A stretch of DNA of 64,000 bases. Source: a virus. Both the position numbers and the translations under genes were made by a program. The notes beneath the pieces were generated by a model. The model was not told the origin of the DNA. It searched no databases and worked only from the letters and a program-made list of their open reading frames with translations. Below are positions 8-18,317 of the stretch, one piece after another. Position 1 is the first letter of the stretch; each line of letters begins with the position of its first letter. The stretch lies in the IMG/VR virus record IMGVR_UViG_3300045988_182687, positions 71,005 through 135,004 of that record; one strand, given 5' to 3'.

Positions 8-3000
8 TTGTATGGCTCACCGCAAAACTCTTCTGGTCCGAGGAGGGCTCCCGTTCGTGCATCGGGAACCATTACGACCGGCCTCGATATGGGTTATAAC
101 AGGAAGTGGATGGCTGAGTTTGCCCCCTATTCCAGTGCTGTTGAGAAATTCTTCAATGGCCAGCCAGCGTACTGTATTGAACCCCACAAGGGTGCCCCCG
201 GCGCGGGAACTTCCGTTGACGCCAGCGCGTATTGGGGAGACCAGCGGGTTCGTCTTGCTTTGGCTTATGGCTGGGGTGGCGCAGATGACTCGACGTTGCT
301 CTGGTATGCTGGCAACGGCACCTATGCTTGGTGCGCCACACAGGAAGTTATCTGGGAAATCGTCGGCGGCTACAGTGACCTGAGTGACCTGTTTGTGGGT
401 CCCGGTCATCAGTATGACCCTGAAGTTGCTGAACCTATCAAGGCAGCACACGATTATATCTGGGACATGATTAACCAGCAGGCACAGATTCCAAGTTTCG
501 CTGTTGGCAGACCTACTCAGACATATAACGATTTCGAGTTGGTATGGGATGGCACTTCTTGGTCATTGACAAGAACCGACACCAACAGAGTCCTGAGAAA
601 TTTTGGACGCTTCAAATTCTCTCTGTCTGGTGTAAGCACATCACGGAGCGGGAATAACCTAACAATTACAGCCACACCGGAAGCTGCAAGGAGTATGCTG
701 AACGGAATTGTGTCGCTTCCTTGCGAGGGAAATGTGATTGACCCTGATAGCGTCAATGCTTACCTTCTCGTTGCGGGAGGAAGCAAGCAGAATTGTGTTG
801 CCCTTAACGGTACGCCTGACCCTGTAACTTGCTATGTGCGGGCGAAGGTGACGCAAACAACCGGTAATCTGAACATCACAAAGACGTCTGAAAATGGGAA
901 AAACATTTCCAACGTCAGTTTTACTGTAACTGGGCCGAATGGGTATAACCGACTCTTTAAGACAAATACATCCGGCAAAATCAGCATTACAGACCTGCAG
1001 CCCGGAGCTTACACGATTACAGAAACTTCGCCGTTAGGATACTATGCTGTTAATCGGGTTCAGACTGCGACAGTTACGATTGGAGGTACGGCGAGTGTCT
1101 CTTTCCAAAACAAGGTGTCCCGGTGTACCGTGCAGGTAACGAAGACATCGGAAGACGGAGTTCTGCAAGGCTTCACCTTTACACTGAAGGGAACGTCTTA
1201 CGCGGGAGATACTGTAAATCTGTCTGCGACCACAAATGCGAACGGCAAGGCTACGTTCTCCAATGTCCCCTTGGGTTCCAACTATGTTCTTGCCGAGGTA
1301 AATACGCCCAGAAGATATGTAGCCCCTGCCAGCCAGACGTTTACGCTTTCGACGCCTAATACGTCTGTAACCAAAACATTCGAAAATAAATTGGCTCGCG
1401 GCAACGTGACTGTCACAAAGACCTCCGAAGATGGAAAAGTAAGCGGAGTCCAATTTAATCTGAAGGGCACGTCTTTGTCTGGCCAGACAGTAAACCTTAC
1501 TGAAACAACCAACGCCAGCGGCGTGGCCACGTTCTCCAATGTGCTTGTTGGTACATATACGCTGACGGAAGTAAATACAGGTAGGCAGTACGCCCCCGTG
1601 TCCGCGCAGAATGTCACGGTGCAGTATAACTCGACTGCGCGGGCGACTGTCAGCAACAAGTTGGCGCGTGGTTCGGTTCAAGTTACGAAGTCTTCTGAGG
1701 ACGGGAAAGTTGCCAATGTGAAGTTCCGCTTGCAGGGAACATCCATTGACGGCACCGCTGTTGACCTGTATGCTGTGACCAATGCCTCCGGTGTTGCGAC
1801 ATTCTCGAACGTCCTTATTGGAAGCTACATAGTGTCGGAAGTCAACGTGCCAGCCTATTATCAGGCCGTGAATCCCGTCAATGTTACAGTGACCATCAAT
1901 CGTAAATCCTCTGTATCTGTCCAGAATAGGCTCAAGGTAGGTGCCGTTCAGGTGACGAAGACCTCCGAGGACGGCGTTGTGAGCAATCTTTCATTTACGC
2001 TGACAGGTACTTCTGACGCGGGGACGACCGTCAGCATGACGGCAAAGACGGACGCTCAGGGCGTTGCGACCTTCTCCAATGTGCCCATTGGGACAAGGTA
2101 CACAGTACAAGAGTCCAGCACCCCTACCCGCTACGTTGTTCCGGATGTGCAGGATGGCGTTACCGTGAGGGTCAACGACACTACGAAGCTGTCCTTCCAC
2201 AATGACCTTGCGCGTGGAAGTCTTCGCGTTACCAAGACGTCTGAAGACGGATTTGTGTCCGGCGTGAAGTTCCATCTGGAAGGCACCTCTACATCTGGAG
2301 CTGCGGTGTCTCTGGATGCGACTACCAATGCAGCGGGCATTGCTGAATTCAAGAATGTGCTGGTGGGCAGCAGCTACGTTCTGACGGAGGTTGATACGGC
2401 TGCCCGCTATGTTGTCCCTGCGGTGCAGAACGGTATTGTAATCACTGTGGGGAAAACCACGGAGGCTTCGGTTTACAACAAGCTGGCTCGCGGAACGGTT
2501 ACTGTTACGAAGACTGCTGAGGACGGGCTGGTTTCCGGCATCAAGTTCCGATTGACCGGCACGGCAGGTAATGGTGACGCGGTGGATATGACCGCTACCA
2601 CCAATGCCAAAGGCGTAGCAACCTTCTCTGACGTTCTGATTGGCGAGAACTATTCCGTTCAGGAAGTTGGCACCGCCGAAAAGTATATCGTACCGGATGT
2701 CGTTTCTGGCATAAATGTAACGCTGAATAGAACTGCGAACGCCAATGTGCATAATAAGTTGGCTCGCGGTACAGTGAGTGTGACCAAGACCTCTGAAGAC
2801 GGTATCGTTGAGGGCATCAAGTTCCACCTGACAGGTACTTCTGCACAGGGTCAGCGCGTAGACATGATGGCTGTGACGAACGCTTCCGGCATTGCAACCT
2901 TCGATAATGTTCTTGTGGGTTACAACTACACGCTGGAGGAAGTTGACACCGCTGCACGGTATGTCATTCCTGCAGTAAAGGGCGGCATCAATGTAAAGCT

Positions 3001-6000
3001 GGATAAGACCACAACTGTTTCTGTTCATAATGTGCTGAAGAAGTGGTCTGTGACCGTTACAAAGCGCGATATCGAGACGACGACAGCGCAGGGCAACGCC
3101 ACCTTGCAGGGCGCCGTTTATGGCCTGTATAATGGCGACGAACTGGTGAAACAGTACACCACTGATGCGAATGGAAAGTTTGCTACGGACGTCTATGTTT
3201 GCGGCGATAATTGGACCATCAAGGAAATTGTTCCGTCCGTCGGCTATCTGCTGGATGACAGTGTATATCAAGTAGGCGCTGAGGCGAAGAACTACGTCAT
3301 CGAAATCAATGCAGCCCCCGATTTGGGCGTAACAGAAAAGGTCATCAAGGGCTACATTAAGATTTTCAAGCACTCGGATGTCGGTCCTACCGGCGTCGAG
3401 GAATCCCTCCCGACCGGAAAGGTCACACCCGAAGTTGGCGCTGAGTTCGATGTCTACCTGAAGGCGGCAGGAAGCTACGCTGCTGCGAAGACCACCGATA
3501 GAGACCACATTGTTGTGGACGAGGACGGGTATGCGACAACCAAGGCGCTGCCTTACGGTACATATGTTATCGAGCAGACAAAGCATTTTGAACACGCAGA
3601 TATGCTTTCTGGCTTTGAGGTGACTATTTCCGAGAATGGGAAAACTTATTTCTATGTGCTTAATGACCGTCCTTATTATGCTTCTGTTCGAGTGGTAAAA
3701 CAGGACGCAATGGACAATGTTCAAGTTCCTTACAGCGGAGCTGAGTTCCAGATATACGACCCAGATGGAACTCTTGTGTCCCTCAAGGCTGGGGCTAAAA
3801 ACATTGATACATTTAGGACGGATAATGACGGAAATTTGATAACCCCCGAAGAACTTCCTTTTGGTCGCGGCTATAAGCTGGTGGAAACCAAAGCTCCTCG
3901 TGGCTATCGCTTGAACTCCACTCCCGTTATATTCAATGTTGATTTTGAAAGTACAACCATGAATGACGGGGAAAAGGTCGTTGTCGTGAAGATGACAGAT
4001 GTGCCTGTAACGCCTCAAATCAAGACTGTAGCTAAGGGCGAGGCGGGGGAGAAAACCATGGAACCCCTGACATCTGTGACAATTAAGGATACGGTGTCCT
4101 GTACCGATGTCATTCCCGGCAAAACCTATACGGTGAATGGTTATCTGGTTTTGAAGTCTACTGGCGAGCCTCTTCTGGATGGCGCCGGTCACAGGATAAC
4201 TGCTACGAATACCTTTGTTGGCGGCAACAACTTTGAGGGGTCCACCGTGCTGTCCTTTACATTCGATGCTTCTCTTATTGCTGGAGATGCTGTAGTTGTA
4301 TATGATACGCTGCATCGTGACGGTGTAGAGGTGGCAACCCACAAGAGCATTTCGGACGCGGACCAGACCGTATCCTTCTTCGCACCCGAAATTAAAACTT
4401 CCGCCGTCAACCCTGATGGAAATGTGAAGGTTGTTGACCCCTCCATCGGCGTATCTATCGTGGATACGGTGTCCTATAAGCATCTCACTCCCGGACATAA
4501 GTACGTTTTGAAGGGGCAGATGATGGATAGGGACACGCAGCAGCCGGCAAAGGACGATAACGGAACATACATTGTCGGAACGACAACCTTTACTCCGGCG
4601 ACAACGGAAGGTTCGGTAGATGTGACCTTCACCTTCGATGCAACTGAGATTGCGGGTGTGCAGCTTGTCGCGTTCGAGAAACTCTACCATGTTGCCATCA
4701 GCAGCGATATCCCCGTTGCAACGCACGAGGACATTGAGGATGCGGAACAGACCGTAACAGTCGAGGCACCTGAGATTACCACTCATGCAACCAACGCCGA
4801 AGACGGAACTAAATTCCTTGACCCGCAGTACATGGTGAAGGTCAGGGACTCTGTTGCGTATGAAAAGGTCGTTGAGGGGCACACTTATCTGTTGACCGGA
4901 AAGGTGTTTGATAAAACGGCAGGCGAGTTTGTGAAGGATGCTGCCGGAAATGAAATTACCGGCACAACAAGATTTACGCCCACGGCGAAGGCCGGTACTG
5001 TGGATGTCGAGTTCGTTTTTGATGCTTCGGAACTGTATGGACATACTCTGGTCGTGTTTGAAAAACTGTCTTACAGGGGTGTTGTCCTTACCGTCCACGA
5101 AGATGAAGCAGATGCCGAGCAGACCGTGAATGTCTACAGCCCGAAGATTGGCACTACCGCTATTGATGGTGAGGGTACGGGTAAGTTTATTGACCCTGCG
5201 AAAAATGTTGTCATTAAGGATACGATTGCTTACGAACATCTTACCATAGGGCAGGAGTACACTATCATCGGTACAGTGATGAATAAGCGAACAGGTGAGG
5301 CTGTTGTTTCTGGTGGACGCACTGTAACGGTGACGAACACATTTACGCCGTCTGCGTCTAAGGGCAGCACCGAAATGGTCTTTACATTTGATGCTTCTGG
5401 TCTTGATGGAGATTCCCTTGTTGTGTACGAAGAGCTGTATTTCCGTGCATCTGACAGCACACCTTGTGCCATCCATAAGGATATCGGCGATGAAGGGCAG
5501 ACAGTTGTCGTGAACACTCCTACAATTCACACGACCATCAATGAGAGCATCTCTCTGAATAACTATTTCGAGCCGCTGAATGAAATTACCATTACGGATA
5601 CTGTGACCTATACAGACCTCGTACCCGGTCACAGGTACAAGGTGAAGGGCAATCTCGTTTCCAAAGACACCGGCGATGTTATCCGCGACGGTAATGGAAA
5701 TTTGGTGTCCGGTGAGGCAGACTTCGTTCCGACGACCAAGGATGGAAATGTTGATGTTAAATTCACGCTAAACGCCTCTATCCTGTATGGTCAGAGTGTC
5801 ATTGCCTTCGAGTCCCTGTATTACCACAACACAGTTATTGCCGAGCACAAAGACCTCGCTGACGAGAAACAGGAGGCTGTGTTCTTCGCTCCTGCGCTGA
5901 GTACAAAGGCTCTGAATAATGACGGCGATACAAACCTGATTGACCCTGCCAAGGGAACGCATATTGTGGACACTGTTTATTATCGCCACTTAACCCCTGA

Positions 6001-9000
6001 CCATGAATATACCGTTGTAGGTAAGCTGATGGATAAAATGACAGGGCTTCCTTTGCTGGATGCGAAGGGTGACGAGATTACCGGCAAAACCGTATTCACG
6101 CCGCAGCGGGTCGCGGGGGCGGTCAACGTTGAGTTTACATTTGACGCCAGCAATATGGCAGGGAAGACGCTCGTTGTTTTTGAGTATCTGTACTTCAACG
6201 AGGGCGATGAAACTCCCGCAGGAACGCATACGGACATTTCCGACCTGAAACAGAGCCTGACCTTCAACACACCAGCTATTAAGACCAGTGCGAAGAATGC
6301 GGAAGATAACTCCAAGTTCTTTGACCCTAAGAGCGCTGTAAGACTGGTAGATACCGTGAGTTATGAGGGTCTGTGCAAGGGACATGAGTACACGGTAAAT
6401 GGTGTCCTGATGGATAAAAAGACCGGTACGCCGGTTCTGAATACGGATGGCAACCCCGTTACCGGAACAACATCATTTATAGCTCGCAGTGCTGCCGGCA
6501 AGGTTAAGGTGGAGTTTGTTTTTGACGCTTCGCAGCTCTACGGAAAATCTCTGGTTGTGTTTGAGGAACTCGTGTTTAACGGAACGGTAATTGCGGAGCA
6601 TAGGGACCTTGACGACAGAAGTCAGACCGTAACAATCAATGTTCCCAGCATCTCGACAAGGGCTGTGAATACGGATGGCAAGGGTAAGATGCTTGATGCG
6701 GCGAAGGAAACCTCTATAACAGACACCGTTTCCTATTCCCATGTAACTCCCGGTCACGAGTACACCTTAGTGGGGCGATTGATGAATGGAGGAACTGGTG
6801 AGGAAATTCCCGGCACTGCAACACGGGTGAAATTCACTCCGAAGCGTACGTCTGGTGATGTGGACGTGACTTTCGCATTGGATGCATCTCTCCTTGCTGG
6901 TAAAAATGTAGTTGTGTTTGAGGAACTGTTCTTTAACGAAACGGACGCTGCTCCTTGTGCGACACACAAAGACCTTCGTGACGAAGCTCAAACCGTTACG
7001 GTAATGGAGCCGAGCATCGGAACTACCATGAAGGCAAGTCCTGATAAGAACCAGTTCTTTGTTTCTTCTCTGTCTACGGTTTTGGTAGATACCGTTACTT
7101 ATCACAACCTCATCCCCGGTCACACCTATGTCGCCGAGGGGCACTTGATGGACAAAGCTACTGGACGTGTTCTTGTTGGCGGAAATGGCGAGATTTCAGG
7201 GAGAACAGTATTCGTTCCCAAGTCCATGGATGGGTCTGTGGATGTCTATTTTACATTCGACTCTTCTGAGCTGTTCGGTAAAACGGTCGTAGCCTTTGAA
7301 ACCGTTTCCTACGGCGGTCACATTATTGCCAAGCATGAGGACATTAACGATGTTGACCAGTCGGCAACATTCTATAATCCTGAACTGACCAATACGACCG
7401 CCGTGAACGGTGAGGGCGGCAGCAAGTACATTGATGCAGCCAGAAATGTGGTTATCAAGGATACTGTAAAGTATGCACATCTACCTATAAAACACGATTT
7501 CAAGTTGCGTGGAACACTTGTTTTCCAGTCCTCCGGAGAACCCGTTTTGCTAAACAATAAACCTATTGTAGTTGAAAAATCCTTCACAGCGAAGAAAGCG
7601 GAAGGCTCTATCGACATGGAATTCGTCTTCGATGCATCTGGGCTGCAGGGGAAGAAAATTGTTGTTTTCGAGGAGTTGTTTTACGAAAATCAAACGATTG
7701 CTGCGGCAGCACATAAGGACCTTGGAGATGTCGGCCAGACTGTTACTGTTTCCAATCCTAAGGTGAAGACTGTTGCCTCCAATAAGGTCGATGGAAGTAA
7801 GATGCTTGAGCCGGATAAGAGAGTTACAATCCTCGATACAGTTTCTTTCTCTGGACTGATTGAGGGTCACACTTATAAGGTTTCCGGGACGCTGATGGAT
7901 AAGGCAACTGGCAATCCTGTGGTCGATGAAAGTGGCGAGACGATTACCGCTGAAAAGACCTTTAAGGCGAAGGCTGCTGGCGGAAGTGTTGATGTTGAGT
8001 TTACCTTTGCGGCCACAGAGTTGTACGGGAAAGACATTGTTGTTTTCGAGAAGATTTTCTGTAATGACACTGAGATTGCTTCTCACGAAAATATCAACGA
8101 CAGGGAACAGACGGTGACGGTTTATGCGCCTAACATCACTGGCACAACGGCGGTTGGAACTCTTGGAGGCGGTAAGCTGATTGACCCCGCAGACAATGTG
8201 AAAATCACCGACACTGTTACGTATGAACATCTGTCTGCTGGCCACGAATACACCTTACGCGGTACGTTAATGAACAAGGAAACGGGCGAGCCTATCAAAA
8301 ATGGCGGCACAGAGGTTGTGTCTGAACAGTCCTTTACGCCTGTGGAGGCGAGCGGTTCTGTGGATATGCAGTTTGTTTTCACTGCTTCCTTCTTGAAGGG
8401 CAAAGACATTGTTGTGTTTGAGGAAATCTATTTCAACTCCGAAGATACTGAACCGGTCGCCGTCCATAGGGATATCGACGATGGAAAACAGACCGTTTCT
8501 GTAATAAGCCCTGAAGTAAGGACTGTTGCCGTGAACAAAGAAGATAATGGCAAGGTCTTTGAGCCGGACCAGATGGTTACTCTGAAGGATACCGTGTTTT
8601 ACAACAATCTCATTACTGGACATAGATATACCGTGACCGGAACTCTGATGGATAAGGGAACCGGCAAGCCCATCAAGGATACTGCGGGAAGCATTGTGGC
8701 TTCTTCTGTGGAGTTTACTCCTGATGTTCCCTGTGGCACGGTGGATGTTGAATTCTCCTTTGCTGCAACTGAGTTGTATGGCAAAACCATCGTGGCGTTC
8801 GAGAAGCTAATCTTCAACGGAACTGTCATTGCGAGCCATGAGGATATCAATGACGAGGAGCAGACTACTACGGTTCACAACCCTGAAATCGTGAGGACTG
8901 TTGCTTTGAGCGAGGTGGATGGAGGTAAGTTCATTGATGCCTCTGAAACTTCTACCATCAATGATACCGTGGTATATCGTCACCTGTCTACTGGACACAC

Positions 9001-10927
9001 CTACACACTGAGAAGCAGCTTGGTCGATAAGACTACCGGCGAGCCTGTTCTGAATAACGGCGAACCTGTTGTTGCGGAGTCGCAGTTCACGCCTGGAAGC
9101 ACTGCTGGCTCGACTGTTGCGGCTATCGCTTTCGACGCTTCTGCCGTGAAGGGACGTGATATCGTGGTGTTCGAGGAACTGTTCTTTACTGCTGTTGACG
9201 AGGCACCTGTGGCGGCGCACAAGGATATTGAGGATGCTGACCAGACTGTGACCGTGGTAAAATCTTCTATCAAGACCTCCGCTGAGAACGCCGCTGATAG
9301 CACGAAGGTGTTTGAGCCTACTGCTGATGTCGTACTGAAGGATACCGTGACCTACGAAGGCCTCATCGTCGGGCATACGTACAAGGTTGTCGGTACTCTG
9401 ATGGATAAGGCAGCCGGCAAGCCCGTAGAGAACACAGAAGGGAAGACCATCACCGCAGAGACCACCTTTACGCCTGAGGCGGAGAGTGGTTCCGTGGTTG
9501 TTGAGTTCAAGTTCGACGCACGTACTTTCTTTGGACGTACGCTGGTCGTTTTTGAGAACCTGTACTATGGTAATTCCGTTGTTGCATCTCACAAGGATAT
9601 CAATGACGAAGACCAGTCTGTTGACGTCAAGGCCCCCATTATTGTTGGTACTACTGCGACCAACAAGGCCGATGGCGGAAAGCTGTTCGACCCTGCAGAA
9701 AAGGTTGTTTTGGTCGATACCGTGAAGTATGACCATCTCTCCGCTGCCCACAAGTATACGCTTGTCGGAAAGCTGATGGATAAGGCATCTGGCGAGGCAG
9801 TGAATGATAAGGACGGCAACCCTGTCACAGCTTCTACATCTTTTACTCCCGATGCGCTTTCCGGTTCCGTCGATGTGGTATTCGAGTTCGATGGTAAAGC
9901 TCTTGCAGGTAAGGATGTCGTTGTTTTCGAGTACCTCTTCTATAATGAGGGCGATGAAACCGCACTGACAACTCACGAGGACTTGGAGGATGCTGCTCAG
10001 ACCGTTACCTTCACAAACCCGTCTGTCAAGACATCTGCTTCCAATGCCTCCACCGGAAAGAAGACTTTCTCACCGTATGAAAAGGCCGAACTGGTCGATA
10101 CTGTGACCTACACAGGTCTCATTCCCGGCCATGAGTACACACTGGTCGGTACTCTGATGGAGAAGGTGAAGACTGGCGACAAGTTCGAGGGTAAGGAAGT
10201 AATGGACAAGGACAATAAGCCTTTGACCGCTACAGCGACCTTTACTCCTGAAAAGGCTGATGGCACAACGACCGTATCCTTCATCTTCAGCGCTCGTTCC
10301 GTGGCAGGGAAGACCCTTGTCGTCTACGAGGAACTCTTCTATGACAGCATGAGCATCGCTGCTCACGCCGATATTACGGATGAGGACCAGACCGTGACCG
10401 TTGACCGTATTCATTATCACAGCGGTCCTACCATGAGCACGACGGCAACATTTGCCAATGGCGCAAAGTCCAGCGGCTATGCCTCTCGCCTTGTGATTGT
10501 GGATACCGTGAGCTACTCCGGTCTGACTGTCGGCCAGACCTACACGCTGGTTGGTAAGTTGATGGATGCTCAGACGGGCGTGGCGCTCCGCGACACGAAC
10601 GATAGGGAAGTGACCTCCACGCTGACATTTACCCCGAAGACCTCCGATGGCTCCGTTGATATGAAGTTCTCCTTTAACGCGGGGAACATCAAGGGTGCGA
10701 AGATTGTCGTATTTGAGGAGATGTACGTCGGTAAGGACGTGGCTGGCACTCCGTACCTGAGCCATACCGATATCAATGATGCTGGTCAGACTGTGACTGT
10801 TACCGCATCTCCCAAGACTGGAGACGATGGCGTCGGCAAGTATGTCTCTTTGGGCTCGATTGCCTTGGGAACTGCAATTATTGTCGTTGTAGTGAGCAAC
10901 GTCAAGAGAAGAAAGAAAAATAAGTAA
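8..10927 (+). CDS. Giant sortase-anchored adhesin of the thioester/isopeptide/ester-domain class (5'-partial at window edge): N-terminal thioester-type domain, Cna B-type repeats, about 18 ester-bond repeat domains, C-terminal SPKTG sorting signal
   Basis: ORF open from the window start, 3639 aa. N-terminus carries Y-C-I-E-P (Cys at about nt 173) and T-Q-E-V-I-W (Gln at about nt 341), matching thioester-domain Cys/Gln motifs. About 9 repeats of roughly 95 aa carry VTKTSEDG plus the 'TD...G...L..G.Y...E...P.GY' Cna B/SpaA-type signature (nt about 880-3050). About 18 repeats of roughly 140 aa each end in H-x-D-x-x-D-x-x-Q-T-V, the intramolecular Thr-Gln ester-bond motif (nt about 4020-10800). 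C-terminus is SPKTGDDG + hydrophobic helix + RRKKNK, a Clostridial (S/P)PxTG sortase signal. Confidence 0.85.
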   Translation: MYGSPQNSSGPRRAPVRASGTITTGLDMGYNRKWMAEFAPYSSAVEKFFNGQPAYCIEPHKGAPGAGTSVDASAYWGDQRVRLALAYGWGGADDSTLLWYAGNGTYAWCATQEVIWEIVGGYSDLSDLFVGPGHQYDPEVAEPIKAAHDYIWDMINQQAQIPSFAVGRPTQTYNDFELVWDGTSWSLTRTDTNRVLRNFGRFKFSLSGVSTSRSGNNLTITATPEAARSMLNGIVSLPCEGNVIDPDSVNAYLLVAGGSKQNCVALNGTPDPVTCYVRAKVTQTTGNLNITKTSENGKNISNVSFTVTGPNGYNRLFKTNTSGKISITDLQPGAYTITETSPLGYYAVNRVQTATVTIGGTASVSFQNKVSRCTVQVTKTSEDGVLQGFTFTLKGTSYAGDTVNLSATTNANGKATFSNVPLGSNYVLAEVNTPRRYVAPASQTFTLSTPNTSVTKTFENKLARGNVTVTKTSEDGKVSGVQFNLKGTSLSGQTVNLTETTNASGVATFSNVLVGTYTLTEVNTGRQYAPVSAQNVTVQYNSTARATVSNKLARGSVQVTKSSEDGKVANVKFRLQGTSIDGTAVDLYAVTNASGVATFSNVLIGSYIVSEVNVPAYYQAVNPVNVTVTINRKSSVSVQNRLKVGAVQVTKTSEDGVVSNLSFTLTGTSDAGTTVSMTAKTDAQGVATFSNVPIGTRYTVQESSTPTRYVVPDVQDGVTVRVNDTTKLSFHNDLARGSLRVTKTSEDGFVSGVKFHLEGTSTSGAAVSLDATTNAAGIAEFKNVLVGSSYVLTEVDTAARYVVPAVQNGIVITVGKTTEASVYNKLARGTVTVTKTAEDGLVSGIKFRLTGTAGNGDAVDMTATTNAKGVATFSDVLIGENYSVQEVGTAEKYIVPDVVSGINVTLNRTANANVHNKLARGTVSVTKTSEDGIVEGIKFHLTGTSAQGQRVDMMAVTNASGIATFDNVLVGYNYTLEEVDTAARYVIPAVKGGINVKLDKTTTVSVHNVLKKWSVTVTKRDIETTTAQGNATLQGAVYGLYNGDELVKQYTTDANGKFATDVYVCGDNWTIKEIVPSVGYLLDDSVYQVGAEAKNYVIEINAAPDLGVTEKVIKGYIKIFKHSDVGPTGVEESLPTGKVTPEVGAEFDVYLKAAGSYAAAKTTDRDHIVVDEDGYATTKALPYGTYVIEQTKHFEHADMLSGFEVTISENGKTYFYVLNDRPYYASVRVVKQDAMDNVQVPYSGAEFQIYDPDGTLVSLKAGAKNIDTFRTDNDGNLITPEELPFGRGYKLVETKAPRGYRLNSTPVIFNVDFESTTMNDGEKVVVVKMTDVPVTPQIKTVAKGEAGEKTMEPLTSVTIKDTVSCTDVIPGKTYTVNGYLVLKSTGEPLLDGAGHRITATNTFVGGNNFEGSTVLSFTFDASLIAGDAVVVYDTLHRDGVEVATHKSISDADQTVSFFAPEIKTSAVNPDGNVKVVDPSIGVSIVDTVSYKHLTPGHKYVLKGQMMDRDTQQPAKDDNGTYIVGTTTFTPATTEGSVDVTFTFDATEIAGVQLVAFEKLYHVAISSDIPVATHEDIEDAEQTVTVEAPEITTHATNAEDGTKFLDPQYMVKVRDSVAYEKVVEGHTYLLTGKVFDKTAGEFVKDAAGNEITGTTRFTPTAKAGTVDVEFVFDASELYGHTLVVFEKLSYRGVVLTVHEDEADAEQTVNVYSPKIGTTAIDGEGTGKFIDPAKNVVIKDTIAYEHLTIGQEYTIIGTVMNKRTGEAVVSGGRTVTVTNTFTPSASKGSTEMVFTFDASGLDGDSLVVYEELYFRASDSTPCAIHKDIGDEGQTVVVNTPTIHTTINESISLNNYFEPLNEITITDTVTYTDLVPGHRYKVKGNLVSKDTGDVIRDGNGNLVSGEADFVPTTKDGNVDVKFTLNASILYGQSVIAFESLYYHNTVIAEHKDLADEKQEAVFFAPALSTKALNNDGDTNLIDPAKGTHIVDTVYYRHLTPDHEYTVVGKLMDKMTGLPLLDAKGDEITGKTVFTPQRVAGAVNVEFTFDASNMAGKTLVVFEYLYFNEGDETPAGTHTDISDLKQSLTFNTPAIKTSAKNAEDNSKFFDPKSAVRLVDTVSYEGLCKGHEYTVNGVLMDKKTGTPVLNTDGNPVTGTTSFIARSAAGKVKVEFVFDASQLYGKSLVVFEELVFNGTVIAEHRDLDDRSQTVTINVPSISTRAVNTDGKGKMLDAAKETSITDTVSYSHVTPGHEYTLVGRLMNGGTGEEIPGTATRVKFTPKRTSGDVDVTFALDASLLAGKNVVVFEELFFNETDAAPCATHKDLRDEAQTVTVMEPSIGTTMKASPDKNQFFVSSLSTVLVDTVTYHNLIPGHTYVAEGHLMDKATGRVLVGGNGEISGRTVFVPKSMDGSVDVYFTFDSSELFGKTVVAFETVSYGGHIIAKHEDINDVDQSATFYNPELTNTTAVNGEGGSKYIDAARNVVIKDTVKYAHLPIKHDFKLRGTLVFQSSGEPVLLNNKPIVVEKSFTAKKAEGSIDMEFVFDASGLQGKKIVVFEELFYENQTIAAAAHKDLGDVGQTVTVSNPKVKTVASNKVDGSKMLEPDKRVTILDTVSFSGLIEGHTYKVSGTLMDKATGNPVVDESGETITAEKTFKAKAAGGSVDVEFTFAATELYGKDIVVFEKIFCNDTEIASHENINDREQTVTVYAPNITGTTAVGTLGGGKLIDPADNVKITDTVTYEHLSAGHEYTLRGTLMNKETGEPIKNGGTEVVSEQSFTPVEASGSVDMQFVFTASFLKGKDIVVFEEIYFNSEDTEPVAVHRDIDDGKQTVSVISPEVRTVAVNKEDNGKVFEPDQMVTLKDTVFYNNLITGHRYTVTGTLMDKGTGKPIKDTAGSIVASSVEFTPDVPCGTVDVEFSFAATELYGKTIVAFEKLIFNGTVIASHEDINDEEQTTTVHNPEIVRTVALSEVDGGKFIDASETSTINDTVVYRHLSTGHTYTLRSSLVDKTTGEPVLNNGEPVVAESQFTPGSTAGSTVAAIAFDASAVKGRDIVVFEELFFTAVDEAPVAAHKDIEDADQTVTVVKSSIKTSAENAADSTKVFEPTADVVLKDTVTYEGLIVGHTYKVVGTLMDKAAGKPVENTEGKTITAETTFTPEAESGSVVVEFKFDARTFFGRTLVVFENLYYGNSVVASHKDINDEDQSVDVKAPIIVGTTATNKADGGKLFDPAEKVVLVDTVKYDHLSAAHKYTLVGKLMDKASGEAVNDKDGNPVTASTSFTPDALSGSVDVVFEFDGKALAGKDVVVFEYLFYNEGDETALTTHEDLEDAAQTVTFTNPSVKTSASNASTGKKTFSPYEKAELVDTVTYTGLIPGHEYTLVGTLMEKVKTGDKFEGKEVMDKDNKPLTATATFTPEKADGTTTVSFIFSARSVAGKTLVVYEELFYDSMSIAAHADITDEDQTVTVDRIHYHSGPTMSTTATFANGAKSSGYASRLVIVDTVSYSGLTVGQTYTLVGKLMDAQTGVALRDTNDREVTSTLTFTPKTSDGSVDMKFSFNAGNIKGAKIVVFEEMYVGKDVAGTPYLSHTDINDAGQTVTVTASPKTGDDGVGKYVSLGSIALGTAIIVVVVSNVKRRKKNK
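45..605. repeat. Copy A of an inter-gene duplicated segment covering the thioester-domain coding region (pairs with 13131-13692)
   Basis: nt 171-549 appear identical to 13258-13637 (379 of 380). Flanks are about 85-90% identical by eye. Confidence 0.8.
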
Positions 10928-11147: not shown

Positions 11148-11256
11148 AAGCACATCAAAAATAATGTCAAGTTTTCCACAGCTTAAACCTCGTCACGGTC
11201 TATTATTTAATTACATTCCATGAGCAAATTTTGAAATGAATGAAAGGACAAGAACT

Positions 11257-12405
11257 ATGAAAAAGATGAAGAATTTTATCGCCCTGCTGCTGGCTCTGGT
11301 GATGACCATGAGTTTGATGGCCTGCGGCAACAAGACTGACGAGGAGACCAAGACCGGAGAGGACATCGGCTGCTACGTACAGACGACTGAGACCGGAGAG
11401 AAGGTTCTGGTGGATAAGGACGGCAACGCCGTGACCGACTACACGCTGGACGACGAAGGCAATGTGGTGGACACGCAGGGCGTGGTGGTCGTCAAGGCGG
11501 CGGACATCACGGCTTACGAGAAGTCCGAGGAAAAGGATGCGGAGAACAAGACCGACGCATCCGAGGCAGATACTCAGAAGCCTGAGGATACTGCGAAGCC
11601 CGATGGCGAGAACAAGTCCGACGCACAGAAGACGGACACCAAGGTGGATAACACTAAGAAGGACGAGACCAAGAAGGATGATGCCAAGCAGGAAACTCAG
11701 AAGCCCGCTGACAACAAGCAGGACACCACGAAGCCTGAGACCAAGCCCGAAACGAAGCCTGAGGTTAAGCCGGAGCCCCAGAAGCCCGCAACGCCCAGTT
11801 ACGATAATGGTTCTCTGACCACCGCACAGGTGAAGGAGCTCCAGCGCTGGTACGGCGTAAGCGCGGACGGTCAGTGGGGTGCAGGCTCCAAGAAGGCCGC
11901 CGGTGGCCGCACCGCTGATGAGGCGTGGGCATACTACCAGAGCAACAAGCAGATTACCACCCCCGAAACCCCCTCTGGCGGCAACACTGGTAACACTGGA
12001 AACACTGGAAACACTGGCAGCACCGGTTCCACAGGCGGTGGTTCCACGACGCCTACCCCTCCTTCTGAGCCCGCCAAGCCCACCAAGGCGGACATTGACT
12101 GCGCGGCTGCTATTGCAACAGGGAATGCTTACGCAGAAAGCATCGGTTTTGAGATTTGGAATGGATGCCGCAGCCATTTCCCTCCGATTTATCTGGAGCG
12201 CGATTGCCCTGAATCTTGCTGGAATCAGGAATGGGTTGATGCCACAATCAAGCAGGCTGTTGACTATGTGAAGAGTTCTCTTGAGAACTGTGGTCGTTTT
12301 TATGCACACGTGGACGGAAAGGAAGGTGAAGCATCTGCCGTGAATTGTTCTGTTCGGTGGAATGCTTCTGCTGGATACCACGAGATTTATGTTTATTATG
12401 CATAA
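11257..12405 (+). CDS. Lipoprotein with a low-complexity K/D/E/T/P-rich linker, a GNTGNTG repeat, a peptidoglycan-binding-like motif and a Cys-rich C-terminal domain
   Basis: AAAGGA ribosome-binding site 8 nt before the ATG. Signal peptide ends in lipobox L-M-A-C. 'LTTAQVKELQRWYGVSADGQWG' resembles the PG_binding_1 motif. The listed ORF starts 21 nt earlier at an in-frame ATG that has no ribosome-binding site. Confidence 0.6.
   Translation: MKKMKNFIALLLALVMTMSLMACGNKTDEETKTGEDIGCYVQTTETGEKVLVDKDGNAVTDYTLDDEGNVVDTQGVVVVKAADITAYEKSEEKDAENKTDASEADTQKPEDTAKPDGENKSDAQKTDTKVDNTKKDETKKDDAKQETQKPADNKQDTTKPETKPETKPEVKPEPQKPATPSYDNGSLTTAQVKELQRWYGVSADGQWGAGSKKAAGGRTADEAWAYYQSNKQITTPETPSGGNTGNTGNTGNTGSTGSTGGGSTTPTPPSEPAKPTKADIDCAAAIATGNAYAESIGFEIWNGCRSHFPPIYLERDCPESCWNQEWVDATIKQAVDYVKSSLENCGRFYAHVDGKEGEASAVNCSVRWNASAGYHEIYVYYA
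11980..12050. repeat. Tandem 9-bp repeats (ggNaacact) encoding (GNT)n(GST)n
   Basis: ggcaacact ggtaacact ggaaacact ggaaacact ggcagcacc ggttccaca. A slipped-strand-prone microsatellite inside the lipoprotein gene. Confidence 0.6.
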
Positions 12406-12457: not shown

Positions 12458-12650
12458 TGAAAAAGAAACTTCTTGAAAATTTGCGAGTCCGGATGTGTTG
12501 ACAATATGCTTGAATATGCTACCATGAAAACATGGAGGGCAATCCGCCTCCTTACATTATTCGTTTTGAGTTGGCAATAATAAGAAACGGATAAATATAA
12601 GAAGGCTGGTTTTCTCTAAATAATTTCATTGAAAGGAGACAAAAAATACC

Positions 12651-15600
12651 ATGAAACACAAGAAGATGCGTGGCGTTGTTGCAATGCTGTTGACGCTGGT
12701 GATGATGGTCGGAATGCTTCCCACATCCGTGTATGCGTCGGATGCGGATGGCGGCGGCGATTCGGTCGTTCTCGAAAGTGTTTCTGACCCTGCGAAGGTT
12801 GGAAAGACTGGTTCTGGCAACGGCGATTTGGTCTACAACGCCACAGAAGACGCGAAGAATCCCGATGACGGTAAGAAGTCCGATTCTCCCGTCGTTGAGG
12901 ATGATGTTAAGGGAGGTGCCGATAAGAAGGACACCTCCAAAGAGAGCTCCTCTGAAAACGAGCAGCCTGCTCCGGGTGAAGCTAAATCTGAAGCTGGTAA
13001 GGATGAGTCTGTCAAATCTTCCGTGACGGAGGAGGGCCTTCAGGACCCCTACGCTGGAGAGAATACTCCCGTGAACGTTTCCTTCCTTTACGGGTCTGCA
13101 CAGAACGCCCCCAGAGCTATCAGCGCAATGAGGGCTCCCGCTCGCGCATCGGGCACCATTACGACCGGTGACGACATGGGTTATAACAGCAAGTGGATGG
13201 CTGAGTTCGCACCCTATTCCAGTGCCGTTGTAAAATATTTCAACGGCCAGCCGGCGTACTGTATTGAACCCCACAAGGGTGCCCCCGGCGCGGGAACTTC
13301 CGTTGACGCCAGCGCGTATTGGGGAGACCAGCGGGTTCGTCTTGCTTTGGCTTATGGCTGGGGTGGCGCAGATGACTCGACGTTGCTCTGGTATGCTGGC
13401 AACGGCACCTATGCTTGGTGCGCCACACAGGAAGTTATCTGGGAAATCGTCGGCGGCTACAGTGACCTGAGTGACCTGTTTGTGGGTCCCGGTCATCAGT
13501 ATGACCCTGAAGTTGCTGAACCTATCAAGGCAGCACACGATTATATCTGGGACATGATTAACCAGCAGGCACAGATTCCAAGTTTCGCTGTTGGCAGACC
13601 TACTCAGACATATAACGATTTCGAGTTGGTATGGGACGGCACTTCTTGGTCGTTGACAAGAACCGACACCAACAGAGTCCTGAGAAATTTTGACGACTTC
13701 GAGTTCAGCCTGCCCGGTGTGAGCACCTTCCAGAGTGGAAACAATCTTACGATTACAGCCACGCCGGAAGCCGCTAAGAGTATGTTGAACGGCATTGTAT
13801 CGTACCCCACCGAGGGCAATGTGATTGACCCTGATAGCGTCAACGCTTACCTTCTCGTCGCGGGTGGCAGCAAGCAGGATTGCGTTGCTCTTAACGGCAC
13901 CCCCGACCCTGTTACTGCCTACGTCCGCGCCAAGGTCACAAAGACTACCGGCGATTTGAACATTGCCAAGACTTCCGAGGATGGCAAGGTAGGCGGCGTG
14001 AGTTTCACGGTCACGGGCCCCAACGGTTACAGCAAGACTGTGACCACTGGTGCAAACGGTAAGATTGCCATTACCGATTTGCAGCCCGGTACTTATACCG
14101 TAACGGAGAATACACCCGACAATTACATCCCGACGCAGCCCCAGTCCGTAAACATCGCAATCGGCGATTTTAAGACGGTGAACTTCAGCAACGTGCTGAA
14201 GAAGGGCGCCGTAAAGGTGACTAAGACCTCAGAGGATGGTCAGATTGCTGGTCACACCTTCCGTCTGTCCGGCACTTCCGCAGCAGGTACGGCTGTCAAT
14301 ATGACGGCTGTTACGGATGCCAACGGCGTGGCTACCTTCAATAATGTTCCTGTGGGCAACAACTATAAGCTGGAGGAAATCAACACCGCAGCGAAGTATG
14401 TTGTTCCTGCGGTGCAGGCTGGCGTGGTGGTTGAGTACAACACCAGCACCCCCGCTCAGTTTGAGAACAAGCTGGCTCGCGGCAATCTGAAAATCACGAA
14501 GACCTCCGAGGATGGCTTCGTGGCAGGCATGACCTTCCGGCTGACCGGTACGTCTATCTCCGGTGCAGCAGTCAATGAAACTGCTTCTACCGACGAGAAC
14601 GGTGTCGTCATGTTCAGAGAAATCCTTATCGGTAATAACTATACCGTACAGGAAATCAACACCGCCGAGCGGTACGTTGTTCCCGCTGTCCAGAGCAATG
14701 TGACCGTCACGCTCAACAACACCACCAGCTTGAACTTCCATAATAAGCTGGCTCGCGGCGCCGTTGAGGTTAAGAAGACCTCCGAGGACGGCAAGGTCGC
14801 TGGTATCACGTTCCGTCTGTCCGGTACTGCTATCAACGGCGAGACGGTGGATATGACCGCCGTGACCAATGACGCCGGAGTTGCCACCTTCAACAACGTT
14901 CTGATTGGCAACAACTACAGCGTTGAGGAAATGAACACGGCTGCCAAGTATATCGTTCCCGCTGTGACAAACGGCGTGAAGGTTACTCTGGATAACACCA
15001 CCCCCGTGAATGTCTACAACAAGCTCAAGCGCGGCGACCTGCGCGTTACCAAGACCTCTGAGGACGGCATGGTCGAGGGCATCACCTTCCGGCTGCATGG
15101 AACTGCCATCTCCGGCGATGCTGTTGACCTGACTGCTACCACTAACGCTGACGGTATTGCCATCTTCAAGGATGTCCTGATTGGCAACAACTACACGCTG
15201 GAGGAAGTCGATACGGCGGTGAAGTATGTTATTCCTGCCGTGCAGACAGGTCTCGTTGTGGAGTTCCAGAAAGTTACCGACACCGCTGTGACCAACGTAC
15301 TGAAGAAGTGGAAGGTCACTGTGGAGAAGACGGACGCCGAGACTGGCAACATCCCTCGCGGCGATGGTGTCTTTGAGGGTGCTGTGTACGGTCTCTATAA
15401 GGGTGACGAGCTGGTGAAGGAGTACGTTATCGGCAGCGACGGCAAGTTTACCACTGACGAGTACATCTGTGGCTATGATTACACCATCCGTGAAATCAAG
15501 GCGCCCACTGGCTATCAGATTGATGAGGGCGTGTATCACGTTGGCGCCGAGCCGGAGAACTACCGTATCGAACACAACGTTGCTCCCCAGATTACCTCTG

Positions 15601-18317
15601 TCGAGGTCATCAATCGCGGCACATTCGCCATCACCAAGTTCATCTCCGACGGAACCTCCGGTCCCGCTAAGTTCGAGGGCGGTGCAGAGTTCAAGTATTG
15701 GCTGCAGTCCGCCGGCTCTTACGAGAACGCTAAGGATGACGAGCGCGGTATCCTGACGACCAACGACTTGGGCTACAGCGGCAAGTCCATCGAGCTGCCC
15801 TACGGCACCTATGTGGTGCATCAGACCAAGTCCGGCGATAAGGGTGCGGGGCTCGCGCCTGAGTTCACCGTTCTGGTCGGCGAGGTTGACCACGACCATC
15901 ACGACTTGGCTGTCAACAACGGACCTATTACCGCGTACCTGCGCGTTGTGAAGGTCGATGAGCTTGACGGCGAGGTTATTCCTTGGGGCGGCGCGAAGTT
16001 CCAGATTTACGACCCTGACGGGAACAAGGTGTCCCAGAAGGTCACTTACCCCACGGTAACTTATATTGATACATTCGAGACCAATGATGAGGGTTATTTT
16101 GTGACCCCGCTGGTTCTGCCTTACGGCGAGAACTATCATCTGGTCGAAATCGTACCCCCGAAGGGTTATGAGCTGATGGATACCCCGATTACCTTCAGCG
16201 TTACGCCCGATACCATTTCTCTGGATGCCGAGACCGGTCTGGTGACTGTGAATATCATCGCCGAGGACGAGGCGGTGACTCCCAAGGTCAAGACTACTGC
16301 AACCGACAAGGAAGGCAACAAGGAAATCGTTCCGTCCACCACCGTCACTATCGTCGATAAGGTGGAATGCACCGACGTTATCCCCAACAAGACCTATACG
16401 GTCGAGGGATATCTGGTGGTTAAGTCCACCGGCGAGCCTCTGCTGGACGCCGAGGGTAATCGCATTACCGCCTCTAAGACCTTCAAGGCTGAGGCCGACT
16501 TCACTGGCTTTGTGGAGCTGGAGTTCACCTTTGATGCGTCTCTGCTGGGTGGCGAGTCCATCGTTGTTTTCGAGGACCTGAAGCGCGGAAACCGTGTCGT
16601 TGCTACCCATGCCGACATCAACGATGTTGACCAGACCGTTGTAATCCTGAACCCCAAGATTGGCACCATGGCCAAGAACGTTGTTGGCGGCAAGGAGTTC
16701 ATGCCTCTGGCTGATGTGATTCTGGTGGATACCATCTCCTACGAGAATATGCCCGTGGGTAAGGAGTTCATCGCTATCGGTACGCTGATGGATAAGGCCA
16801 CCGGCAAGCCCGTTACCGATGCCAACGGCGACCCCGTTACCTCTTACAAGGTGTTCACTCCCGAAGCTGCCACTGGTACGGTGGATGTGAAGTTCGTCTT
16901 TGACGCTTCCAAGCTGGCCGGCAAGTCTCTGGTGGTATTCGAGCGTGTGTATCTGGGCAACGAGATTGTTCCCGGCGACTCCAATAAACCCGTGTTTGTG
17001 AGTCACGAGGATATCAACGATGAGGGGCAGACCGTCACCATCGGCGTTCCCGAAATCGGTACAAAGGCCGTGAACAACGCCACCAACGGCAAGACCCTCG
17101 ACCCCGAAGCCCGCGCTGAAATCAAGGATACCGTGTCCTATAAGGGCCTGATTGCTGGCGAGAAGTACACTGTCTCCGGTAAGCTGATGAACAAGGCCAC
17201 CAACGAGCCCCTGAAGGATAAGGACGGAAAGGAAATTACCTCCTCCGTTACTTTCACCGCTGAGGCGTCCAATGGCACCGTTGACGTGTTCTTCGTGCTC
17301 GATGCATCTCTGCTGCGTGGCCAGTCTATCGTTGTATTCGAGTCCCTGCAGTACAAGGACATTGAAATCGCAGTTCATGCCGACATCAACGATGTTGACC
17401 AGACCGTGACCGTCAACAGCCCTGAAATCAAGACCACCGCTAAGAACGCGGCTGATGGCAAGAAGGAATTCTGGGCCTACAGCAAGGTCGAGTTGGTCGA
17501 TACCGTGTCCTATAAGGGCCTGATTGCCGGCAATAAGTACACCGTAATCGGTAAGCTGATGGACAAGGCGACAGGTGAGCCTGTTCTGGGCCGCAACAAC
17601 AAGGAAATCACCGCCACTACCGAGTTCGAGGCCAAATCCTCTGACGGCACTGTGGATGTGAGTTTCGTGTTTGATGCATCCATTCTGGGCGGTAAGACGC
17701 TGGTCGTGTTCGAGACCCTGACCCGCAATGGCACTACGGTCGCGACTCACGCCGACATCAACGATGTTGACCAGACTGTGACCATCAAGCGCATCCCGAC
17801 CTATTCCGGTCCGAGCATTTCCACCACCGCTACCTTCGATGGCAAGGAGAAGAAGAACTCTGTTGCTGGTAAGAACGTGAAAATCGTGGACACCGTCAAC
17901 TATACCGGCCTGACTGTGGGCAAGACCTACGTGCTGGTTGGTACGCTGATGGATAAGGATTCCGGTGTTGCCCTCAAGGACAATAAGGGTAATCTGGTAA
18001 CGGCTACCACGACCTTTACGCCCAAGTCCTCCAACGGGGCTGTGAATGTTACGTTCAAGTTCGACGCATCCAAGCTGAAGGACCATGCGCTCGTGGTGTT
18101 CGAGACTCTGTATGAGGGTCGTGCTGAGGCGGGTAATGTCATTGCTACCCACAACGACCTGATGGACGGTGCCCAGACGGTGTATTTCCGCGACAGTGTC
18201 CAGACTGGCGATGAGGGCATCGGCCTGTGGGCCATGCTGGGTACGTTCGGTGCCATTGCTTGCTGCGGCACTGCGGTGTTCATGTTCCGCCGCAAGAAGG
18301 AGTATGGCGCCGAGTAA
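12651..18317 (+). CDS. Second sortase-anchored adhesin of the thioester/isopeptide/ester-domain class: signal peptide, acidic linker, thioester-type domain, Cna B-type repeats, 5 ester-bond domains, SVQTG sorting signal
   Basis: GAAAGGAGA ribosome-binding site. Signal peptide MKHKKMRGVVAMLLTLVMMVGMLPTSVYA. Same YCIEP/TQEVIW thioester-type motifs as adhesin 1. VTKTSEDG-type repeats. Five H-A-D-I-N-D-V-D-Q-T-V type motifs. C-terminus is VQTGDEG + hydrophobic helix + RRKKEYGAE. Confidence 0.85.
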   Translation: MKHKKMRGVVAMLLTLVMMVGMLPTSVYASDADGGGDSVVLESVSDPAKVGKTGSGNGDLVYNATEDAKNPDDGKKSDSPVVEDDVKGGADKKDTSKESSSENEQPAPGEAKSEAGKDESVKSSVTEEGLQDPYAGENTPVNVSFLYGSAQNAPRAISAMRAPARASGTITTGDDMGYNSKWMAEFAPYSSAVVKYFNGQPAYCIEPHKGAPGAGTSVDASAYWGDQRVRLALAYGWGGADDSTLLWYAGNGTYAWCATQEVIWEIVGGYSDLSDLFVGPGHQYDPEVAEPIKAAHDYIWDMINQQAQIPSFAVGRPTQTYNDFELVWDGTSWSLTRTDTNRVLRNFDDFEFSLPGVSTFQSGNNLTITATPEAAKSMLNGIVSYPTEGNVIDPDSVNAYLLVAGGSKQDCVALNGTPDPVTAYVRAKVTKTTGDLNIAKTSEDGKVGGVSFTVTGPNGYSKTVTTGANGKIAITDLQPGTYTVTENTPDNYIPTQPQSVNIAIGDFKTVNFSNVLKKGAVKVTKTSEDGQIAGHTFRLSGTSAAGTAVNMTAVTDANGVATFNNVPVGNNYKLEEINTAAKYVVPAVQAGVVVEYNTSTPAQFENKLARGNLKITKTSEDGFVAGMTFRLTGTSISGAAVNETASTDENGVVMFREILIGNNYTVQEINTAERYVVPAVQSNVTVTLNNTTSLNFHNKLARGAVEVKKTSEDGKVAGITFRLSGTAINGETVDMTAVTNDAGVATFNNVLIGNNYSVEEMNTAAKYIVPAVTNGVKVTLDNTTPVNVYNKLKRGDLRVTKTSEDGMVEGITFRLHGTAISGDAVDLTATTNADGIAIFKDVLIGNNYTLEEVDTAVKYVIPAVQTGLVVEFQKVTDTAVTNVLKKWKVTVEKTDAETGNIPRGDGVFEGAVYGLYKGDELVKEYVIGSDGKFTTDEYICGYDYTIREIKAPTGYQIDEGVYHVGAEPENYRIEHNVAPQITSVEVINRGTFAITKFISDGTSGPAKFEGGAEFKYWLQSAGSYENAKDDERGILTTNDLGYSGKSIELPYGTYVVHQTKSGDKGAGLAPEFTVLVGEVDHDHHDLAVNNGPITAYLRVVKVDELDGEVIPWGGAKFQIYDPDGNKVSQKVTYPTVTYIDTFETNDEGYFVTPLVLPYGENYHLVEIVPPKGYELMDTPITFSVTPDTISLDAETGLVTVNIIAEDEAVTPKVKTTATDKEGNKEIVPSTTVTIVDKVECTDVIPNKTYTVEGYLVVKSTGEPLLDAEGNRITASKTFKAEADFTGFVELEFTFDASLLGGESIVVFEDLKRGNRVVATHADINDVDQTVVILNPKIGTMAKNVVGGKEFMPLADVILVDTISYENMPVGKEFIAIGTLMDKATGKPVTDANGDPVTSYKVFTPEAATGTVDVKFVFDASKLAGKSLVVFERVYLGNEIVPGDSNKPVFVSHEDINDEGQTVTIGVPEIGTKAVNNATNGKTLDPEARAEIKDTVSYKGLIAGEKYTVSGKLMNKATNEPLKDKDGKEITSSVTFTAEASNGTVDVFFVLDASLLRGQSIVVFESLQYKDIEIAVHADINDVDQTVTVNSPEIKTTAKNAADGKKEFWAYSKVELVDTVSYKGLIAGNKYTVIGKLMDKATGEPVLGRNNKEITATTEFEAKSSDGTVDVSFVFDASILGGKTLVVFETLTRNGTTVATHADINDVDQTVTIKRIPTYSGPSISTTATFDGKEKKNSVAGKNVKIVDTVNYTGLTVGKTYVLVGTLMDKDSGVALKDNKGNLVTATTTFTPKSSNGAVNVTFKFDASKLKDHALVVFETLYEGRAEAGNVIATHNDLMDGAQTVYFRDSVQTGDEGIGLWAMLGTFGAIACCGTAVFMFRRKKEYGAE
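13131..13692. repeat. Copy B of the duplicated thioester-domain coding segment (pairs with 45-605)
   Basis: See 45-605. 13258-13637 appear identical to 171-549. Confidence 0.8.

Follow-up and report, generated by a model that had tools for sequence, protein, structure and literature searches.

Two paralogous thioester-isopeptide-ester adhesins with a long and a short stalk, most likely encoded on a large conjugative plasmid

What are the two giant, repeat-rich proteins encoded at one end of a stretch of DNA filed as viral, and does the reactive domain near their N termini embody a compact form of thioester chemistry? These questions are raised by positions 71,005 to 135,004 of the IMG/VR record IMGVR_UViG_3300045988_182687, a 64,000-nucleotide stretch hereafter called the window. 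It contains two genes, labelled ORF1 and ORF2 (open reading frames 1 and 2; Table 1), which an earlier, sequence-only reading had described as surface adhesins of the sortase-anchored type, in which a thioester warhead is followed by CnaB-type domains and then by a long ester-bond stalk. Domain profile matches bear out that overall description. ORF1 and ORF2 are very likely two paralogous members of the TIE (thioester-isopeptide-ester) family, fibrillar surface adhesins with a sortase-type anchoring signal, as judged from their domain architecture, the conservation of catalytic residues, the predicted fold of the thioester domain (TED) and synteny with related elements. They are further members of a known family, not a new chemistry: the TIE family is defined by the joining of a TED with isopeptide and ester domains in a single chain, as in SaTIE (PMC6194298), and an NCBI naming model, 'VaFE repeat-containing surface-anchored protein', already exists.

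Both proteins contain the two motifs on which the warhead assignment had been based, YCIEP and TQEVIW, and both match the Pfam TED profile (27.2 bits for ORF1 and 28.5 bits for ORF2; curated cut-off 22). The sequence-only reading paired the cysteine of the first motif with the glutamine of the second, about 56 residues away, and proposed a compact TED. The distance is correct (C58 to Q114 in ORF1, C204 to Q260 in ORF2), but the glutamine chosen is not the bond partner. In TEDs, according to Miller et al. 2018 (PMC6194298), TQxxΦW is a third conserved motif; helix α2 places its Gln and its Trp next to the bond, but neither residue is required for the bond to form. The bond pairs of Class II TEDs are C71–Q266 in BaTIE, C296–Q467 in SaTIE and C88–Q292 in EfmTIE86 (PMC6194298), and C68–Q256 in the modelled TIEpLS20 (PMC8092201), which gives Cys-to-Gln distances of 195, 171, 204 and 188 residues, respectively. 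The corresponding residue here is Gln409 of ORF2, within GGSKQDCVAL, which sits 205 residues past Cys204 and has its counterpart in Q263 of ORF1.

Scanning 1.84 billion representative proteins in full with HMMER returned 310 TED homologues, 76 of which span the whole domain. Among these 76, Cys204 and Trp264 are invariant (100%), the Thr of TQxxΦW is kept in 99%, Gln409 in 97% and Gln260 in 89%. A word-indexed homologue search with the TED had returned only 16 metagenome proteins, most of them fragmentary. The best sequence matches of the TED in the PDB are the Class II TEDs 6fwy and 6fx6, and a profile of 25 homologues matches SaTIE-TED in two stretches (E = 1.5e-17), with its Cys column falling on chain residue 47 (Cys296) and its Gln409 column on chain residue 218 (Gln467; positions counted by hand). 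In an AlphaFold2 model built on the 25-sequence alignment (mean predicted local distance difference test, pLDDT, 82; predicted template modelling score, pTM, 0.79), the Cys, set in a YCIE that agrees with the [YFL]CΦζ motif of such domains, ends strand 50–54, Gln260 and Trp264 (ATQEVIW) lie within helix 102–118, and Gln409 is placed beside a strand of the C-terminal, β-rich half of the domain, in the β-sandwich region. The inserted β-sandwich of Class II is present in this modelled fold, and because the domain has that insert and comprises about 275 residues, it is not compact.

A bond between the YCIEP Cys and the TQEVIW Gln would draw support from the presence of both motifs and from a TQxxΦW Gln that is fairly conserved and that, in solved TEDs, sits beside the thioester and contacts the Cys backbone (PMC6194298). 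Since the two residues adjoin in solved TEDs whatever the bond partner, the structural check proposed along with the compact TED, in which a predicted model would place them in apposition, would be misleading as support. Alignments to solved Class II TEDs reveal the same spacing of about 55 residues from Cys to TQxxW, with the bond Gln elsewhere, and Gln409 is both the better conserved of the two candidates and the one that aligns with the proven Gln467 of SaTIE. The compact arrangement is therefore very improbable. On the evidence of sequence and model, the warhead is a normal Class II TED with a predicted Cys204–Gln409 thioester.

Table 1 Features of the window, with positions counted from its first nucleotide
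Feature	Position	Strand	Details
ORF1, giant TIE-family adhesin, 5′-truncated by window edge	2..10927	+	3641 aa seen; ~3790 aa full by comparison with L011
ORF1 Class II thioester domain	44..868	+	Cys58 nt 173; TQEVIW Gln114 nt 341; predicted bond Gln263 nt 788; Pfam TED/TED_2
Exact 383-bp tract, copy 1, Cys-to-TQxxΦW core of ORF1 TED	167..549	+	Identical to 13254–13636
ORF1 CnaB/SpaA-type (prealbumin-fold) array, predicted Lys–Asn isopeptide signature	869..3979	+	11 Pfam stretches
ORF1 array of 18 consecutive Thr–Gln ester-bond (TQ/VaFE) domains	3980..10789	+	2270 aa; Pfam, NCBIfam
ORF1 cell-wall sorting signal	10808..10924	+	SPKTGD, hydrophobic stretch, KRRKKNK; from sequence
Intervening lipoprotein-like gene	11236..12405	+	389 aa; lipobox LMACG, low-complexity linker, Cys-rich C-terminal domain
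ORF2, complete TIE-family adhesin with signal peptide	12651..18317	+	1888 aa
ORF2 Class II thioester domain	13131..13955	+	Cys204 nt 13260; TQEVIW Gln260 nt 13428; predicted bond Gln409 nt 13875
Exact 383-bp tract, copy 2, in ORF2 TED	13254..13636	+	Identical to 167–549
ORF2 CnaB/SpaA-type domains	13956..16247	+	7 Pfam stretches
ORF2 array of 5 Thr–Gln ester-bond domains	16248..18176	+	Pfam, NCBIfam
ORF2 sorting signal	18195..18314	+	SVQTGD, hydrophobic stretch, RRKKEYGAE; from sequence
tRNA Ser(tga), alone	33210–33297
tRNA cluster Glu(ctc), Thr(cgt), Thr(tgt), Gly(tcc)	61879–62419

Beyond the TED, each chain continues with a block of CnaB/SpaA-type domains and an array of ester-bond domains. 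The ORF1 block includes eight regular units of about 92 residues (VTKTSEDG ... NKL), and the first CnaB Lys (K440) is 99% conserved among homologues; the catalytic Glu was read by eye only. The counts of 18 and 5 ester-bond repeats that had been read from the letters are reproduced both by Pfam TQ (PF18202; 1576.8 bits for ORF1 and 503.4 bits for ORF2; cut-off 23.8) and by the NCBIfam model VaFE_rpt, although the ORF1 ester array is shorter than the more than 2400 residues that had been claimed for the stalk. Its 18 domains had also been described as uniformly HxDxxDxxQ, whereas the strict motif occurs in 16 of them, as well as in all five of ORF2. The two exceptions, HKSISDADQ in domain 1 and HENINDREQ in domain 11, are altered only in the position-3 Asp. 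That residue is not listed in the mutagenesis of Cpe0147, which identified catalytic T450, H572, D577 and Q580 and the buried acids D480 and E547. An alignment of all 23 ester domains shows that every one keeps the Thr, His, Asp and Gln together with the Asp of D[TSK]V, and that all but one keep the Glu of VFE (22/23; ORF1 domain 1 has Asp, as VYD). These six conserved positions map to Cpe0147 T450, D480, E547, H572, D577 and Q580, and the ORF2 array matches the Cpe0147 structure 4mkm in sequence (E = 6.6e-12). With complete catalytic sets of this kind, Thr–Gln cross-links are predicted throughout the two ester arrays. Within ORF1, ester domains 2–16 alternate between units of 122–124 and 126–128 residues and so form a two-domain super-repeat; the longer units have an additional loop ahead of the His motif.

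Neither gene end nor gene order is quite as it had seemed. The ORF1 frame is open from the window edge to position 10927, a run of 3641 codons with no start of its own in the window, and it is not a complete gene; the TTG at position 8 is not its start. In a 95%-identical relative (L011), the homologue of ORF1 starts about 147 codons earlier, with the signal peptide MSTNRCKKVRSIIAMLLAVVMMTGMLPTSAFA followed by an acidic linker (read by eye); by this comparison about 147 N-terminal residues of ORF1, comprising signal peptide and linker, are cut off by the window edge. ORF2 has its own N-terminal signal peptide, MKHKKMRGVVAMLLTLVMMVGMLPTSVYA, recognized by eye with no predictor. The two giant adhesin genes are both present, but they are not strictly adjacent, with the lipoprotein-like gene lying between them as it also does in the relatives L003, L004 and L005. 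Its product has a Lys/Glu/Thr/Pro-rich linker, GNT repeats and a Cys-rich C-terminal domain, and only a weak match to PG_binding_1. Terminator-like hairpins with T-runs, located by eye, follow ORF1 and the lipoprotein-like gene, and each of the three genes therefore appears to be transcribed as its own unit.

The pair is kept intact in a set of related elements. IMG/VR holds 14 loci on eight contigs with related TEDs, and six of the contigs, 119–192 kb long, each carry two TEDs about 13 kb apart. With overlapping loci merged, both members of the pair are complete on six contigs. The ORF1-type gene there has about 3800 codons and exactly 18 TQ motifs, and the ORF2-type gene about 1880–1940 codons and exactly 5. 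On a seventh contig (L008) the ORF2-type gene is complete, and the ORF1-type gene, which extends past the end of the locus, shows all 18 of its TQ domains. Relatives whose TEDs are 80–95% identical have the same gene pair, and the SPKTGD and SVQTGD signals are identical in all seven relatives. Because the counts of 18 and 5 recur in every relative with a whole gene, the number of repeats appears to be fixed and not variable. This agrees with the divergence of the ester repeats, which are 29–57% identical at the protein level, and with the DNA of ORF1, in which no self-similarity was found at E ≤ 1e-10. A recently amplified, recombination-prone array with length variation of the Periscope type was rejected on these three grounds. 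In the relative L005 (IMGVR_UViG_3300029737_000022, positions 2294–5752; 99% TED identity), the ORF2 homologue breaks off after about 1100 residues, where a deletion of about 30.4 kb (window ~15861 to ~46303) joins it to a region matching the window from 46.3 kb onward; this junction is either a deletion variant or a misassembly.

Although the two proteins differ in length, their warheads are nearly the same. Between ORF1 and ORF2, protein identity falls from 93% in the TED to 59% in the CnaB block and 51% in the last TQ domains. The nucleotide sequences agree at 90.7% of 835 bp in the TED block, as opposed to 72% or less, or undetectable similarity, elsewhere. Within this block, the core from the Cys to TQxxΦW forms an exact tract of 383 bp with flanks that are only 70–87% identical, a pattern that fits recent gene conversion better than selection alone. 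Across the relatives, the two TEDs of a pair are between 71% and 90% identical, and on contig 184100 they are nearer to each other than to any orthologue; the exchange thus looks recurrent, but not universal.

The architecture places the pair close to several characterized adhesins without matching any one of them. As with SaTIE (S. aureus; 6FX6), BaTIE (6FWV) and EfmTIE86 (6FWY), the TED is of Class II, with a β-sandwich insert and the order Cys, TQxxΦW and distal Gln, but sequence identity is only about 15–21%. SaTIE shares with the present pair the combination of TED, CnaB isopeptide and ester domains in a single sortase-anchored protein; it has 4 isopeptide and 2 ester domains, compared with 11 and 18 in ORF1 and 7 and 5 in ORF2. 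Cpe0147/CpTIE of Clostridium perfringens (4NI6, 4MKM, 5A0G) similarly has an N-terminal TED, a long run of HxDxxDxxQ ester immunoglobulin-like (Ig-like) domains and the six catalytic positions, but its TED is of Class I and its 12-domain stalk has no CnaB block, whereas in ORF1 the 18 consecutive ester domains follow 11 CnaB/SpaA domains. The giant adhesins of Mobiluncus mulieris and M. curtisii (7651 and 5040 residues) combine a TED with mixed isopeptide and ester Ig domains and have 18 ester domains each (PMC10619420). Unlike the present pair, they are chromosomal proteins of Actinobacteria with LPxTG signals, and M. curtisii has 14 of its ester domains in a tandem run (PMC10619420), whereas the 18 of ORF1 form one uninterrupted block and the two genes are paired on an apparent plasmid. 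TIEpLS20, the product of gene 34 of the Bacillus subtilis plasmid pLS20, is a Class II TED adhesin of a conjugative plasmid with a comparable Cys68–Gln256 spacing; it is short, with a TED and three structural domains, and is sortase-independent, lacking both ester domains and a sorting signal (PMC8092201). Pilus subunits were set aside as an identity for ORF1 and ORF2, which are single-chain multi-domain proteins without a pilus-type sortase nearby.

The genetic setting of the pair is seen in a relative, contig IMGVR_UViG_3300045988_183715 (loci L011, L019 and L025), which matches the window at about 95% identity where the two overlap. The window itself starts inside ORF1, and the replication, partition and type IV secretion system (T4SS) genes were read by walking upstream on this one relative. 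The ORF1 homologue is immediately preceded by RepL-like, parA and parB genes. Farther upstream, genes on the opposite strand encode a primase-like zinc-ribbon protein, two TrbC/VirB2-like proteins and a hydrolase with CHAP and lysozyme domains, as well as a coupling protein of the VirD4/TraG type (E = 1e-41) and an ATPase resembling VirB4/TraC. These loci cover contig positions of about 22–60 kb, in which the rep/par and T4SS genes lie; the contig has almost no matches to PHROGs, and no relaxase has been seen so far. When 20 ORFs of the window were compared with PHROGs, 18 had no match, one had a marginal match and one fell in phrog_874, a family of unknown function; structural or packaging families were matched by none of the 20. 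With rep/par and T4SS genes in the relative and no structural or packaging matches, the element reads as a conjugative megaplasmid that was filed as viral. A phage origin was rejected after the comparison of these 20 ORFs.

A large phage or phage-plasmid, with the adhesins acting in lysogenic conversion or associated with the virion, would accord with the fact that all close relatives come from IMG/VR as contigs of 119–192 kb, with the five tRNA genes of the window, with a YopX-family gene in L003 and with the match to phrog_874. It sits poorly with the PHROG results as a whole and with a plasmid replication and partition module beside a T4SS that includes a coupling protein and a VirB4-like ATPase, and the sorting signals imply display on a bacterial cell wall, not on a virion. 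We regard it as improbable. Most likely the pair is carried, next to rep/par genes and a T4SS operon, by a large conjugative plasmid whose host belongs to gut-type Clostridia, and the IMG/VR contigs of this family are probably plasmids and not viruses. Among sequenced plasmids in PLSDB, no relative of the TED exceeds 38% identity; these distant matches come from Vescimonas, Subdoligranulum and Monoglobus plasmids, the best protein match (38%) being on a plasmid of Vescimonas fastidiosa. A megablast of window positions 18300–43000 against PLSDB and phage records gave only a tRNA-sized match, and exact-sequence look-ups of ORF2, the RecG-like protein and the lipoprotein-like protein returned no record.

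Several observations weigh against the identification of the pair as sortase-anchored, cross-linked adhesins of a clostridial plasmid. The plasmid and T4SS context comes from relatives that are about 95% identical over the shared region and not from the window itself, and two scans of GTDB representative genomes, one with a single TED and one with a 6-sequence alignment, gave no confirmed relative. A Foldseek search of the PDB with the AlphaFold2 TED model returned nothing useful, and the cross-links remain predictions from sequence and model that AlphaFold cannot display. As the sequence-only reading had noted, the window contains no sortase gene, neither by Pfam among the scanned ORFs of at least 120 residues nor as a credible TLxTC motif, and none was found in the region of about 26 kb upstream in one relative; the cognate sortase is presumably chromosomal in the host. 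The sorting signals themselves are not equivalent. That reading had assigned the (S/P)PxTG type to both proteins, which is true of ORF1 (SPKTGD) but not of ORF2 (SVQTGD). SPKTG is cleaved in vitro by C. difficile SrtB, whereas NVQTG, the closest known analogue of SVQTG, is not (PMC4155245), and anchoring of ORF2 is less certain because of this resemblance. A third sortase-substrate gene, with 979 codons, a VWA and a GBS104-like tip-pilin Ig domain and the signal APQTGD, lies upstream of repL in four relatives (L010, positions 3823–6759; contigs 183936, 000398 and 183830) and is absent from contigs 183715 and 184100 and from the window.

The rest of the window contains accessory genes typical of large mobile elements at 22473–24788, 55232–55807, 59150–61237 and 62680–63864, which in this order encode a topoisomerase (Toprim and Topoisom_bac), a toxin of the MazF/PemK type, a helicase resembling RecG and an OrfB (TnpB) of the IS605 family; between 18 and 58 kb, Pfam matches are lacking for most of the remaining ORFs. 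A dispersed intergenic repeat of about 170 bp occurs at 33311–33481 and 63919–64000 and also upstream of parA in relatives (L011, 6826–7004), and a second intergenic family of about 145 bp occurs at 43357–43625, 49801–49945, 53792–53936 and 56834–56973. These dispersed repeats may be regulatory or partition-related sites.

How would such a pair work? The signal peptide would, by homology, export each adhesin, and the C-terminal sorting signal would be processed by a sortase that lies outside the window and that the host chromosome presumably encodes. The N-terminal Class II TED would then be presented on a rod of Ig-like domains, with an autocatalytic cross-link predicted in each rod domain, a Lys–Asn isopeptide in the CnaB/SpaA part and a Thr–Gln ester in the TQ part. 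The reactive warhead would be the Cys204–Gln409 thioester (Cys58–Gln263 in ORF1), which may bond covalently to an amine on the target surface. An Ig-like domain is usually 4–5 nm long. With 29 stalk domains in ORF1 versus 12 in ORF2, we estimate that the stalks would reach about 120–145 nm and 50–60 nm, respectively. Bond formation, cell-wall anchoring, the ligand and the biological role, whether adhesion to a host or particle or contact between donor and recipient, are all matters that we infer from sequence.

The adhesins might chiefly be conjugation factors, displayed on the donor so that the thioester captures recipients and stabilizes mating pairs at two reaches, much as TIEpLS20 does. 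This is a sub-hypothesis about biology, drawn by analogy, and is compatible with the TIE molecular mechanism. A Class II TED adhesin is needed for efficient conjugation of pLS20 in liquid, where the Cys68Ser variant is inactive, and Class II TED adhesins occur on several further conjugative plasmids of Gram-positive bacteria (PMC8092201). On contig 183715 the pair adjoins repL, parA and parB and lies about 5–25 kb from the T4SS genes, and the pair with its domain counts is kept across seven related elements. Yet the argument proceeds from analogy and context, the adhesin genes look like their own transcription units (from hairpins seen by eye) outside the T4SS operon, and TIEpLS20 is much shorter, has no ester domains and is not sortase-anchored. 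Plasmid-borne adhesins for host colonization are common too. Conjugation thus has a precedent in TIEpLS20 and suits the neighbourhood, while adhesion to hosts or particles is equally ordinary for plasmid-borne adhesins, and we consider a chiefly conjugative role possible but on the unlikely side. Rather unlikely when all its parts are taken jointly is a broader proposal, that conjugative megaplasmids of 119–192 kb in gut-type Clostridia keep a long and a short covalent adhesin for the capture of recipients or of a shared ligand at two distances; that the two would bear the same warhead, alike in some lineages through gene conversion, on stalks of about 29 and about 12 domains; and that they would constitute a mating-pair system unlike PrgB and TIEpLS20, anchored by sortase and reinforced by ester bonds.

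As TIE adhesins, ORF1 and ORF2 add to a family that is already well described, and the compact thioester chemistry that had been supposed is not there. Their interest is modest and lies in the conserved long and short pair, in the common warhead, apparently converted recently, and in an uncultured conjugative megaplasmid as their likely carrier. With their catalytic residues intact, the 23 diverged ester-bond domains offer protein engineering a set of orthogonal self-cross-linking modules. One warhead on two stalk lengths, together with the recent conversion tract, amounts to a natural experiment on whether reach matters in covalent adhesion. How Gram-positive bacteria form mating pairs is poorly understood, and to our knowledge only one TED adhesin has so far been linked to conjugation. 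A conserved pair of TED adhesins on an uncultured conjugative megaplasmid would offer a second, far larger case in which to test that role.

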